The notes under the pieces: generated by a model
The model's input: the letters and a program-made list of their open reading frames with translations, nothing else
The model's database searches: none
Told to the model about the DNA's origin: nothing
Shown: one piece after another, positions 14,930-18,032 of the stretch
Layout: each line of letters opens with the position of its first letter
Position numbering within the stretch: the stretch's first letter is position 1
Source of the DNA: a phage
NCBI GenBank assembly: GCA_036611895.1
Contig: GCA_036611895.1_4766.1
DNA: 64,000 nt
Direction: 5' to 3' (one strand)
Position numbers and translations under genes: made by a program

Positions 14930-15436
14930 TTATTTGCTGCTTCTTGCAGCTACTGGTTTGTTTTCCTGGTTCTGATACTTACCATTGTAATTAGCAGGTT
15001 CTTGAACCAGATGAAATAATACTTGAGCTATCCCAGCACCAGCCGGGATATGCAATTTCTTACGACCATGATAGACCAATTCAAGGGTGAGATACCCTTT
15101 CCATCCTGGTTCTATTACGGTATTGAACACTGATAATGCACGTCTTGCCCATGTAGACTTATCGTGAACTATAGCTACGCAGGACGGGGACATGTTGAAC
15201 TTCTCAATTGCTGAAGCCAATGTGAATTTACCGAAATGGCGTGATACTTGATTTCCATCAACAACCTTCACCATTGGAATCAATCCAAATAAGCGATAGA
15301 AGGTAATATCTTGTTTGATACGAATATCATAACCAGCTTCACCCAATCCATAGCTTACACCGTGTTCAGATATCTTACGGTCTGGGACATCCAGCAACTG
15401 GGATGAACGATATAGAGAATTACCATTAACAACCAT
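14930..15436 (-). CDS. dcd: dCTP deaminase / dUTPase-fold enzyme
   Basis: 168 aa. GLGEAGYDIR, AIVHDKSTWARRALSVFNTVIEPGWKGYLTLEL and IPAGAGIAQ resemble dCTP deaminase/dUTPase motifs. Confidence 0.7.
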   Translation of the reverse strand: MVVNGNSLYRSSQLLDVPDRKISEHGVSYGLGEAGYDIRIKQDITFYRLFGLIPMVKVVDGNQVSRHFGKFTLASAIEKFNMSPSCVAIVHDKSTWARRALSVFNTVIEPGWKGYLTLELVYHGRKKLHIPAGAGIAQVLFHLVQEPANYNGKYQNQENKPVAARSSK

Positions 15437-16611
15437 TATTTCATTCCTTTAGGGATATGAACTACCTCCCCAAAAGGTACGGTAGCATTGGGATTATTCA
15501 GAACACACCAGATGATTGGAATATCAAATGGCAATTCTTCCATTGGACGAACATACATATCGGAGAATATGATTGCAGCGGTTGGCTTATTCTTAATAAT
15601 CCAATCTCGTACAGGCACAAGGCTTGTACCACCACGACCTGTAATCTTAATCTCTTCAAAAGTATCTTCTTCAGTGATGTCTATCTCTTCTTGAATAATA
15701 TCGTCGAAAGTAATTAAGGACATCTTCTTAGGGTTGAACTGGCTTTTAACGTAGGCAACCTCTGAGTTAAAACGCAGAGAGTCAGCACTACTAATAGAAC
15801 CAGATACATCCTCAAAGTAGGCTAAGTGACGTAGGCGTCCTTCATCATCTTCCAGGGAAGGTAGATAAATATCAGTGTAACGACGGTTAGGTCTGGCCCA
15901 CGTATAGTGTGTGTCATCAATGTCGGTAAAGAAGTTCATGAGAACTTCCTGCCAAGGAACCACTGGTTTAAGGAATTGGGTAATGACCTCTTCCATACGA
16001 CCAGCACCCTTACCGGGCATCTGTCCACCAGCCATCTTCTGGCTCTGCATTGCACGTACTACGTTGTTGACTACAGCACCCTGGGACTGTCCCGAAGTGG
16101 GGGATTTCATGTCGCCAGCAAGACCTGCTCCAGCACCCCCTGACGGCTTCTGCCTTTTCTGAGGGTTCTTCATCAGGTCATCGTAGATGTCTTCTTCGAC
16201 CCATCCTTTATATTGCGGGTCTTTGCAAATGCCTTCATCAATGCCAGTGAACTTGTAGCCATCTTCTTCTAACTGAAGGTTAATGAAGTGGTCACAAGCC
16301 TGGTTCCATACTTCTGGGTCACGGCTTCCACGACGGATGTCATGTAGATATGCTACATGCCATAGTTCATGCATTAATACTGTTTCTCTTGCATCTGGAC
16401 ACATCCAGATAAAGAAATCAGGATTGAAATGGAGTTCTATCCCATCAGTACATGCAGTGGGACAATCCTCACGTTTCCATGAGAATTTAAGACTACACAG
16501 TAATGAACCAAAGAACGCAGCAGACTTGCCCAGAAAGGCTTGGGCCTGAATACGGTCATACTCACGCATGAGTTGTTCATCACTAAGTGTGTGCTGAGGA
16601 AATTGGTTCAT
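15436..16611 (-). CDS. vWA-like domain protein with HExxH metallopeptidase-like motif (partner of AAA+ ATPase)
   Basis: 391 aa. HELWH motif in N-terminal half; C-terminal vWA-like segment; 8-nt from upstream AAA+ gene. Confidence 0.55.
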   Translation of the reverse strand: MNQFPQHTLSDEQLMREYDRIQAQAFLGKSAAFFGSLLCSLKFSWKREDCPTACTDGIELHFNPDFFIWMCPDARETVLMHELWHVAYLHDIRRGSRDPEVWNQACDHFINLQLEEDGYKFTGIDEGICKDPQYKGWVEEDIYDDLMKNPQKRQKPSGGAGAGLAGDMKSPTSGQSQGAVVNNVVRAMQSQKMAGGQMPGKGAGRMEEVITQFLKPVVPWQEVLMNFFTDIDDTHYTWARPNRRYTDIYLPSLEDDEGRLRHLAYFEDVSGSISSADSLRFNSEVAYVKSQFNPKKMSLITFDDIIQEEIDITEEDTFEEIKITGRGGTSLVPVRDWIIKNKPTAAIIFSDMYVRPMEELPFDIPIIWCVLNNPNATVPFGEVVHIPKGMK

Positions 16612-16618
16612 GTTGTGA

Positions 16619-17671
16619 TTATCCGTGAATGTAACGAGAGATGTTAGCAGCAGCCTTACGCCATTCAGGGGTAGCCTGAAGTTCTGGTAATGCTCTGCCT
16701 ACTGTACGGAAGTACAGAATCTTATGGGTGAACGTTTTAAAGCGTTCAATGTACTGAAGAACTTCAGCGAAATTCTCTTCAGTAGTTTTGTTAGCCAGAT
16801 GGTTAACGGTAGCCCAGCACAGGTTGTTATCTTCCGGTAATGCACAGCCCAGTGGGTCTTTGACTACCTTCTCAATCGTAATGATACGATTATATACCTG
16901 AGTAAACTGAACAAATTCTGTAGCTTTACCGGCAGTAACGTGTCCTGCATAGTAGATAGAATCTTCATCAGGCAGAGCACCTTCTGGTAGGTTCTTGAGG
17001 TCTTTATTAACAAAGTCCCAGGTACGTGGACAACAGAAAGTTTTGTTCTTATGTGCTGGGTCGAAGTCATGCAGGTAACCAGGGTTAGCATGTAAGAATG
17101 CAACCAGACGTTCATCCCATTGTTGGGGAATCATTACATCTTCAACAAAGATGTCGAAGTTAAGTTCCATCTCAAAGTGAACCACACGAGACTGCATTGC
17201 AGTACCCAGAGGATTAACAATGGCACGGTCAGTAGCTTTGTTACCAGCACAGACAATCATCACATTAGGATGAAGTTTTTTCTGACCAGTCATACGGTCT
17301 AGAATTAGTTTGTATGCAGCAGCTACCACTTCTTTCTTAGCTGAGTTGAACTCATCAAGGAACAGGAGCCAGCCATTATAACCTTCGGGTACTTCGTCTC
17401 CCTCAATGGGAAATAAGTCAGCGAATGGTATAAACTCTGCACGGTCACCATTACGGAATGGCAAACCAGACAGGTCTTCCGGGGCAGAAGTAGACAGACG
17501 ATGGTCTATCAGTTTCATACCAAATTCTTCTGCAATAGAACGAATGATTGCAGATTTACCCATGCCTGGTGATGAAGTTAGGAATGGTACGTTACCTGCT
17601 TTCAAAGCACGGATAATAAAGTTACGAGCTTGACGTGAATTACATACGGTCAAGGAGTCAATGCTTGCCAT
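16619..17671 (-). CDS. AAA+ ATPase (MoxR-like)
   Basis: 350 aa. Walker A SPGMGKS, Walker B LLFLDEFN. Confidence 0.8.
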   Translation of the reverse strand: MASIDSLTVCNSRQARNFIIRALKAGNVPFLTSSPGMGKSAIIRSIAEEFGMKLIDHRLSTSAPEDLSGLPFRNGDRAEFIPFADLFPIEGDEVPEGYNGWLLFLDEFNSAKKEVVAAAYKLILDRMTGQKKLHPNVMIVCAGNKATDRAIVNPLGTAMQSRVVHFEMELNFDIFVEDVMIPQQWDERLVAFLHANPGYLHDFDPAHKNKTFCCPRTWDFVNKDLKNLPEGALPDEDSIYYAGHVTAGKATEFVQFTQVYNRIITIEKVVKDPLGCALPEDNNLCWATVNHLANKTTEENFAEVLQYIERFKTFTHKILYFRTVGRALPELQATPEWRKAAANISRYIHG

Positions 17672-17705: not shown

Positions 17706-18032
17706 TTAAGATTTAATACATGGGTATGCTGTATCAATCGCCAACAGAACCATGTCTGATGGCACTTTTATTGCATTAACCTTTCGGTCATACAGAATAA
17801 TAGTGGCTACCTTGTCAAAGACATTTCCTAACTTCAAATGCTCTGGTACGCAGTTTTTTCCTGCTTCTACGCCCATAGTAACCATGCCCATGAAATAACC
17901 CTGGTTCACAAAGTTTGCATTATTGGCTTTGTAGTCGGCAGCAGCATCCAACAAGGTTTCACGGCTAGATGCTTGGGCATTGAATGACAGAACAGATAAA
18001 GCTACTACAGCAACAGCAATTAAAGTTTTCAT
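17706..18032 (-). CDS. secreted (signal-peptide) protein
   Basis: 108 aa. N-terminus MKTLIAVAVVALSVLSFNAQA has n/h/c signal-peptide organisation with AQA-S cleavage-like site. Confidence 0.5.
   Translation of the reverse strand: MKTLIAVAVVALSVLSFNAQASSRETLLDAAADYKANNANFVNQGYFMGMVTMGVEAGKNCVPEHLKLGNVFDKVATIILYDRKVNAIKVPSDMVLLAIDTAYPCIKS

Follow-up and report, generated by a model that had tools for sequence, protein, structure and literature searches.

A MoxR-like ATPase and its HExxH-vWA partner in a Gamaleyavirus, related to gp24 and gp25 of phage N4: a candidate ATP-driven remodeling and processing machine

Introduction

In the NorQD system, a MoxR hexamer takes a finger of the von Willebrand factor A (vWA) domain of its partner into the pore through the helix-2 (H2) inserts (PMC13036017). 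The MIDAS (metal-ion-dependent adhesion site) or the linker of the partner binds acidic residues of the client, and ATP-driven rotation stretches the adaptor linker, remodeling the client (PMC13036017). This docking mode is presumed by its authors to be general for AAA+ proteins with vWA partners (PMC13036017). A pair of a MoxR protein and a metallopeptidase-vWA protein was described by Iyer et al. in 2021 in the group 2.2 jumbo phages (PMC7824862). They proposed that it acts in the assembly of virions, with peptidolytic processing, on the model of Acidianus two-tailed virus, where a MoxR-vWA pair is needed for tail development (PMC7824862). Here we analyze such a pair, encoded at positions 15436-17671 of a 64,000-nucleotide stretch of phage DNA (GenBank assembly GCA_036611895.1, contig GCA_036611895.1_4766.1; hereafter the window), and compare it with gp24 and gp25 of phage N4.

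In N4, gp24 has been annotated as a "putative ATPase, AAA superfamily" and gp25 as a member of the "vWFA super-family" (Zhao et al. 2009, PMC2784036). Genes 24 ("unknown") and 25 ("vWFA domain") are among the 14 core genes of 25 N4-like phages (Chan et al. 2014, PMC4193335), and both are middle transcripts in N4 (PMC4193335). They are among the few N4-like core genes still without an assigned function. An earlier note on the window, made from the sequence, had implied that a vWA partner with an HExxH motif is new. This is not so. The HExxH-vWA fusion and its pairing with MoxR are already known, as an architecture catalogued in Pfam (DUF2201_N plus DUF2201) and as a published observation, through the N4 core genes (PMC4193335) and the jumbo-phage fusion (PMC7824862). 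The same note had asked whether the pair might be universally conserved with a known role in related phages; the universal conservation was found, whereas a known role was not.

Results

The pair and its orthology to N4 gp24 and gp25

Both open reading frames (ORFs) lie on the minus strand, adjacent to each other and where the earlier note had placed them. The first encodes a gp24-like MoxR-class AAA+ ATPase of 350 residues (16619..17671), assigned from Pfam AAA, PHROG 1297, AlphaFold and Foldseek, and from its orthologue in St11Ph5. The second encodes a gp25-like protein of 391 residues (15436..16611), assigned from Pfam, PHROG 1314 and its St11Ph5 orthologue, which consists of a zincin-like domain, a conserved linker and a vWA domain. 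The DNA of this region is 94-95% identical to that of Escherichia phages vB_EcoP_PE007, St11Ph5, IME11 and ECBP1 and of Shigella phage pSb-1, and by this sequence similarity the source phage is a Gamaleyavirus (G7C-like) of the Schitoviridae. The two proteins share 97-99% identity with deposited sequences, and 99% with those of St11Ph5, whose RefSeq record notes the orthologues as "gp24" and "gp25" (the latter at locus L019, 9536-10711).

The gene order in N4 is gp24 (ATPase), gp25, gp26 (dCTP deaminase) and then gp30 (thymidylate synthase). The order gp24, gp25, dCTP deaminase is common to N4, St11Ph5 and a Mesorhizobium contig that is described below. Hidden Markov models of the families of the window proteins match the N4 locus at 1.2e-182 for gp24 and 1.2e-191 for gp25 (hmmsearch), and the remarks of the N4 depositor call gp24 "similar to S. 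coel. protein 1" and gp25 "protein 2". Judged by these sequence comparisons, the two genes are almost certainly the orthologues of N4 gp24 and gp25.

The ATPase is of the MoxR type

The ATPase matches Pfam AAA (5.6e-6) and PHROG 1297 "ATPase" (9e-134). Its match to Pfam AAA_5 is under the gathering score (17.4 versus 22 bits), so that the membership in the MoxR class rests on the fold. The AlphaFold model, built with 26 sequences, has a mean pLDDT (score of the predicted local distance difference test) of 85.5. In a Foldseek search of the PDB its best match is NorQ (5.5e-7), with Rea1/midasin, dynein and CbbQ, and then RFC, RuvB and Lon; the TM-scores are moderate, at 0.45-0.6. A PDB sequence search gave a single match, to the midasin AAA ring (3.7e-4). 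The C-terminus carries a helical region of about 180 residues that is peculiar to the phage family. Thus, the modeled fold supports a MoxR/AAA_5-type AAA+ protein (clade 7), in line with the MoxR-like ATPase that the earlier note had recognized from its Walker motifs.

These motifs are clear in the translation, and we counted their conservation over 120 ATPase homologues (and that of the partner over 270 gp25 homologues). The Walker A motif or P-loop, SSPGMGKS, covers residues 33-40 (17552..17575, minus strand), with G38, K39 and S40 kept in 119/120 homologues. The Walker B motif, LLFLDE, covers residues 102-107 (17351..17368, minus strand), with D106 and E107 likewise kept in 119/120. The stretch from the sensor-1 residue N144 through S161-R162, a putative arginine finger, lies at 17186..17242 on the minus strand, and all three residues are present in 120/120 homologues; R216 is also conserved (119-120/120). 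In the AlphaFold model, two short strands (131-133 and 137-144) agree with a pre-sensor-1 hairpin. Residues 56-99 (17375..17506, minus strand), between beta2 and beta3, are at the position of the MoxR helix-2 insert and form a candidate loop for contacts to the partner or the pore. They hold the densest invariant positions of the protein (16/44), and residues 63-80 are modeled at pLDDT <50. A segment that is conserved yet of low pLDDT in the model suits a loop that becomes ordered only on its partner.

No NCBIfam family was matched by either protein, and PADLOC gave no meaningful match for the pair, only DolB for the ATPase at E 0.006.

The ATPase gene of the window is uninterrupted, unlike that of Gamaleyavirus U1G. 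There, an insert of about 0.9 kb (locus L013, 2692-3632) with an HNH homing endonuclease, annotated as "Phage intron", splits the gp24 gene within Walker B, exactly at the L105/D106 junction (LFL|DEF), which equals about 17353/17354 on the minus strand of the window. In Rfam the insert matches a group I intron only weakly (23.7 bits, E 0.0013), under the gathering score. Matches in two pieces were also found in pSb-1, PW8 and Uz-1.

The partner combines a zincin-like domain, a linker and a vWA domain

The gp25-like protein has a PHROG 1314 match at 4.8e-144 and the complete DUF2201_N plus DUF2201 architecture, with both domains above the gathering score and in N-to-C order. DUF2201_N (PF13203, "putative metallopeptidase domain") covers residues 17-253 (4e-57; 194.3 bits, cut-off 23.2), and DUF2201 (PF09967, "VWA-like domain") covers residues 263-386 (2e-34; 118.8 bits, cut-off 26.4). 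The earlier description of a 391-residue partner with an HELWH motif and a C-terminal vWA segment holds.

The N-terminal domain (15853..16563, minus strand) is identified by Pfam, PDB profile matches and the AlphaFold model. Its HELWH sequence, the putative zinc-binding and catalytic HExxH motif, is found at residues 81-85 (16357..16371, minus strand) and is invariant in alignments A1 and A3. Over the 270 homologues, H81, E82 and H85 are kept in 262, 257 and 261 sequences, respectively, the catalytic Glu accounting for the 257. D107 and N111, on the helix following HExxH (16279..16293, minus strand), are the candidate site of a third metal ligand; D107 is kept in 265/270, and N111 in 239 with Asp in another 24. 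An alignment of 24 gp25 homologues (49-88% identity) has H81, E82, W84, H85, D107 and N111 invariant. When the N-domain alignment is broadened with N4, RaK2, Bacillus phage G, an rV5-like phage and a contig binned to an archaeal metagenome-assembled genome (MAG), H81, E82, H85, R93, N103, A105, D107, N111 and E140 stay invariant. Because they are kept across so many homologues of the two proteins, the HExxH, MIDAS and ATPase motifs are not a product of chance.

The AlphaFold model of the protein has a mean pLDDT of 76, with about 90 over residues 10-150. Here the N-domain consists of two helices, a three-stranded sheet, the HExxH helix (72-87, with the motif in its C-terminal half) and a helix at 99-116 that carries D107 and N111. 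In this model, the layout is that of a minimal zincin, with HExxH on one helix and D107/N111 on the following one. A profile of the N-domain searched against the PDB had its best matches in selecase MJ1213 at E 0.024, an HtpX homologue at 0.19 and projannalysin at 0.3. These matches are marginal and mutually consistent, since all three are zinc peptidases and each alignment puts HExxH on HExxH. The earlier suggestion of a peptidase-like HExxH domain is supported in that the motif does align to metallopeptidase profiles, if at marginal E values.

A conserved linker (FLKPVVPW…WARPNRRY…YLPS) spans residues 206-262 (15826..15996, minus strand) and is a candidate segment for engaging the ATPase or for regulation. 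Of its residues, 13/57 are invariant, the top density in the protein, and among the 270 homologues R243 is present in 253 and R244 in 263. The pLDDT is <50 at residues 213-222 and 230-256. Its sequence conservation suggests that the linker may engage the ATPase or regulate the active site.

The minimal vWA domain, residues 263-386 (15454..15825, minus strand), has a complete MIDAS motif. This comprises D268-x-S270-x-S272 (DVSGS, 268-272; 15796-15810), T329 (15625-15627) and D351 (15559-15561), all on the minus strand. The five MIDAS residues are kept in 268-270 of the 270 homologues, and D268, S270, G271, S272, T329 and D351 are invariant in the 24-homologue alignment. By structure search, the C-terminal domain adopts a Rossmann-like vWA fold. 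The gp25 sequence alone had no match among solved structures, and its full-length profile gave only a non-significant match to an integrin I-domain, at the MIDAS.

The pair is part of a probable transcription unit

The tight coupling of the two genes that the earlier note had described, at 1-8 nt spacing, is confirmed. The gap from the ATPase stop to the gp25 ATG is 7 nt (TAA-TCACAAC-ATG), and the gp25 TAA shares 1 nt with the ATG of the next gene (TAATG). This gene (14930..15436, minus strand) encodes a dCTP deaminase of 168 residues, the gp26 orthologue (Pfam DCD 8.2e-16; PHROG 1663 2.4e-59), and is context rather than a component of the machine. There is a good Shine-Dalgarno sequence (AGGAG) upstream of the ATPase gene and no obvious one ahead of the gp25 gene, which fits translational coupling of gp25 to the ATPase gene. 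On the minus strand, terminator-like hairpins are found at about 19047 and about 14298, with no terminator-like site from the one to the other. Thus, the pair, several small upstream ORFs and the dCTP deaminase gene probably form one transcription unit.

Directly upstream of the ATPase gene is a 108-residue ORF (17706-18032, minus strand) with a hydrophobic N-terminus resembling a signal peptide. In Pfam it matches Rap1a immunity proteins weakly and below threshold (E 0.005). St11Ph5 labels it "gp17.3 hypothetical", and one record calls it a "flagellar and swarming motility protein". The orthologue of the Hoc-like virion protein gp17 is encoded about 1.5 kb upstream of the pair.

Distribution and linkage of the two genes

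A profile search with the gp25 family over 1.84 billion cluster representatives (family clusters being counted at 50% identity) retrieved 21,736 proteins at E <= 1e-3; at E <= 1e-30 the number is 5,326. By tblastn of GenBank phages, a gp25 homologue is present in 695 records and a gp24 homologue in 811, with a similar spread over host genera (Escherichia, Pseudomonas, Vibrio, Klebsiella, Erwinia, Rhizobium, Achromobacter and Campylobacter). Members of the family occur in Schitoviridae, in rV5-like phages and in jumbo phages of the RaK2 type as well as other large phages. A scan of genome contigs for cellular homologues returned mainly N4-like phage contigs binned into MAGs.

In 13/14 contexts inspected, a gp24-like ATPase gene is found no more than about 4 kb from the gp25-like gene. 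The linked contexts include N4, five N4-like contigs, two N4-like loci whose genes are separated by an insert of 1-2 kb, RaK2 (where the genes are named "gp24-like" and "gp25-like"), the contig binned to an archaeal MAG, and three large metagenomic phage-like contigs. They also include the rV5-like phage DrSchubert, in which the genes are not adjacent and the ATPase is about 3.8 kb from the gp25 homologue. In Bacillus phage G, no gp24-like ATPase is found within 3 kb on each side of the gp25 homologue; the contexts of homologues of the phage-G clade are likewise phage-like contigs.

In DrSchubert (locus L012, 1924-4395), the gp25 homologue has 486 residues and directly follows an Srd-like "anti-sigma factor"/HNH-like gene (PHROG 3118, 1400). 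We considered whether this "anti-sigma factor" is a divergent ATPase and rejected it, as it is Srd/HNH-like and the MoxR ATPase is the gene about 3.8 kb away. In one 558-kb metagenomic contig (locus L014, 2863-7302), a Myb-like DNA-binding gene and a SIR2-family gene are found between the gp24-like and gp25-like genes. The order gp24, gp25, dCTP deaminase occurs with other phage ORFs inside a 727-kb contig of Mesorhizobium yinganensis (locus L004, 2854-5691), and the N4-type order likewise in a 297-kb contig of a Roseococcus sp. MAG (locus L003). These large bacterial contigs could hold an integrated or resident N4-like element, or be assembly chimeras. The N4-like family is regarded as strictly lytic, and an integrated element would be unexpected.

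Discussion

We suggest that gp24 and gp25 probably form a two-component, ATP-driven remodeling and processing machine, in which a MoxR-class ATPase acts with its cognate zincin-linker-vWA adaptor. By analogy with NorQ/NorD, CbbQ/CbbO and Rea1, gp24 would assemble into a hexameric ring. On the same analogy, gp25 would dock on or in this ring, with its vWA domain and linker against the helix-2-insert region of gp24. The MIDAS metal would then capture an acidic residue of the client, and ATP hydrolysis would pull or twist the adaptor-client complex and so expose the client. Finally, as the conservation of the motif suggests, the fused zincin domain may cleave the client so exposed, or else the adaptor itself. 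In function, the pair would then correspond to an AAA+ metalloprotease such as FtsH, in split form.

That proteolysis is the output of the machine is a claim we hold with less assurance, at best as an even prospect. From the sequences, cleavage of a client or of gp25 is favored over the carriage of a metal because the Glu is as conserved as the histidines, and because the only relatives of the domain are peptidases. Several points weigh against our reading of the pair. Most characterized MoxR-vWA systems insert metals or remodel proteins and do not cleave them. Two structure searches with gp25, dominated by the vWA domain, gave vWA matches only, and the PDB profile matches of the putative peptidase domain are marginal (E 0.024-0.3). 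About 3% of the gp25 homologues are without the HExxH residues while the MIDAS is kept, which suggests a stricter requirement for the adaptor role than for the catalytic one. The minimal vWA domain has no obvious NorD-type "finger" insertion, and how gp25 docks and what its linker does are inferred. In addition, the literature searched yielded no experiment on gp24 or gp25 and no functional study for DUF2201 or COG3864.

In its most specific form, our proposal is that gp24/gp25 is an essential split AAA+ metalloprotease, where the MIDAS selects one client, the ring extracts or unfolds it, and cleavage by the zincin is required in the N4-type life cycle. This we put forward tentatively. The cleavage could, for example, mature a replication or transcription protein or one that is encapsidated, or remove a universal host factor.

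A role as a virion-assembly chaperone and processing protease that would fold, assemble and trim structural or encapsidated proteins does not conflict with the mechanism above and is the alternative that survives best, although we consider it rather unlikely. It was proposed explicitly by Iyer et al. for the homologous jumbo-phage pair (PMC7824862). The pair is core to the Schitoviridae alongside structural genes, and virion genes are also found nearby outside the late module; the Hoc-like gp17 orthologue is one, and in roseophage RPP1 a "second structural module" adjoins the gp24/gp25 homologues (PMC4193335). In N4, however, the middle genes are in the block for replication and nucleotide metabolism and not in the late morphogenesis block (PMC4193335), and the pair is translationally coupled to a dCTP deaminase. 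Middle-phase expression together with this coupling to nucleotide metabolism argues against a late morphogenetic role. The gp24/gp25 homologues are also not among the virion proteins of RPP1 and RLP1 identified by mass spectrometry (PMC4193335), though a transient chaperone need not be.

The pair could alternatively act on the host, as a takeover or counter-defense protease whose MIDAS selects a host defense or regulatory factor that the ATPase extracts and the zincin cleaves. The middle-phase expression would agree with this, as would the neighboring genes for superinfection exclusion, rIIA/B and dcd, the Srd-like anti-sigma gene that adjoins the rV5-like gp25 homologue, and the spread of the family over unrelated phage groups. 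The conservation speaks the other way. Phages of Escherichia, Pseudomonas, Vibrio, Rhizobium, Roseobacter and Bacillus share at least 50% identity and invariant interaction motifs, and such conservation over unrelated hosts agrees better with a client internal to the phage, or a universal one, than with a host defense that evolves fast. Moreover, no PADLOC or anti-defense family was matched. We regard a host-directed role as unlikely, somewhat more so than one in virion assembly.

Less probable again is a metallochaperone, in which a metal held by HExxH…D is delivered by the ATPase-driven adaptor into a phage or host metalloenzyme and no peptide is cleaved. Its models are NorQD, CobST and BchID, which deliver iron, cobalt and magnesium, respectively, but NorD, CobT and BchD are without an HExxH domain. 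Furthermore, metal carriage alone would not need the general-base Glu, which is kept in 257/270 homologues, and the only sequence relatives of the gp25 N-domain are peptidases (by its Pfam label and through selecase, HtpX and projannalysin).

That gp25 is an HNH endonuclease, as it is labeled in RefSeq phage genomes and in PHROG 1314, has annotation strings only in its favor and is rejected as virtually certain to be wrong, because DUF2201_N and DUF2201 account for the entire protein with no HNH or other nuclease Pfam domain at E <= 0.01, the C-terminal domain has a vWA fold and the histidines are those of the HExxH motif.

The label looks like a propagated annotation error; it is widespread among gp25-like proteins and needs correcting. 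It concerns the gp25-like genes of the window (15436-16611, minus strand), N4 (locus L001, 4165-5307) and St11Ph5 (locus L019, 9536-10711). In U1G, the gp25 orthologue (locus L013, 836-2010) is annotated as two consecutive coding sequences of 504 and 675 nt, both "HNH endonuclease", and this split suggests a frameshift or sequencing error in the record.

Finding the client of the MIDAS and a cleavage by HExxH would fill a gap in N4 biology. If our proposal is true, a function would be assigned to two of the 14 Schitoviridae core genes. Proteolysis, if true, would extend MoxR-vWA machines beyond metal insertion and remodeling, and this pair would be the first of them for which proteolysis is shown as the end result. 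Since its proteins are 97-99% identical to deposited ones, the window itself adds nothing new on the function of the pair, and it is no more tractable than N4 or G7C.

Among known systems, the closest to the pair is N4 gp24/gp25. The genes are orthologous, in the order gp24, gp25, dCTP deaminase, with about 62% identity and matching Pfam domains. The lengths are similar (352 and 380 residues in N4, 350 and 391 in the window), and apart from an intergenic gap of 167 nt in N4 versus 7 nt in the window there is no substantial difference. The jumbo-phage pair, for example that of RaK2, has the same two-gene architecture and Pfam domains, but the identity is 24-30% and the proteins are longer (424 and 461 residues), with inserts in the peptidase domain.

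NorQ/NorD and CbbQ/CbbO are likewise made of a MoxR ATPase of the CGN type and a vWA adaptor. However, NorD and CbbO are much larger and without an HExxH domain, and the outputs are iron insertion and Rubisco reactivation, not proteolysis. NorQ and CbbQ are without the helical C-terminal region of about 180 residues of the phage ATPase, with TM-scores of only 0.45-0.6, and a finger of the NorD type is not evident in the phage minimal vWA domain. For the N-domain of gp25, the best PDB profile matches are the minigluzincins and M48-type peptidases (selecase MJ1213, projannalysin and HtpX), whose strand, helix and HExxH segments align with it, although with marginal E values (0.024-0.3) and with Asp107 as the probable third ligand in gp25. 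The AAA+ proteases of the FtsH/Lon type differ in that the phage ATPase belongs to another AAA+ clade and the peptidase is on a separate vWA adaptor chain. Their likeness is a functional analogy only, in the concept of an AAA+ ring that feeds a zinc (HExxH) peptidase.

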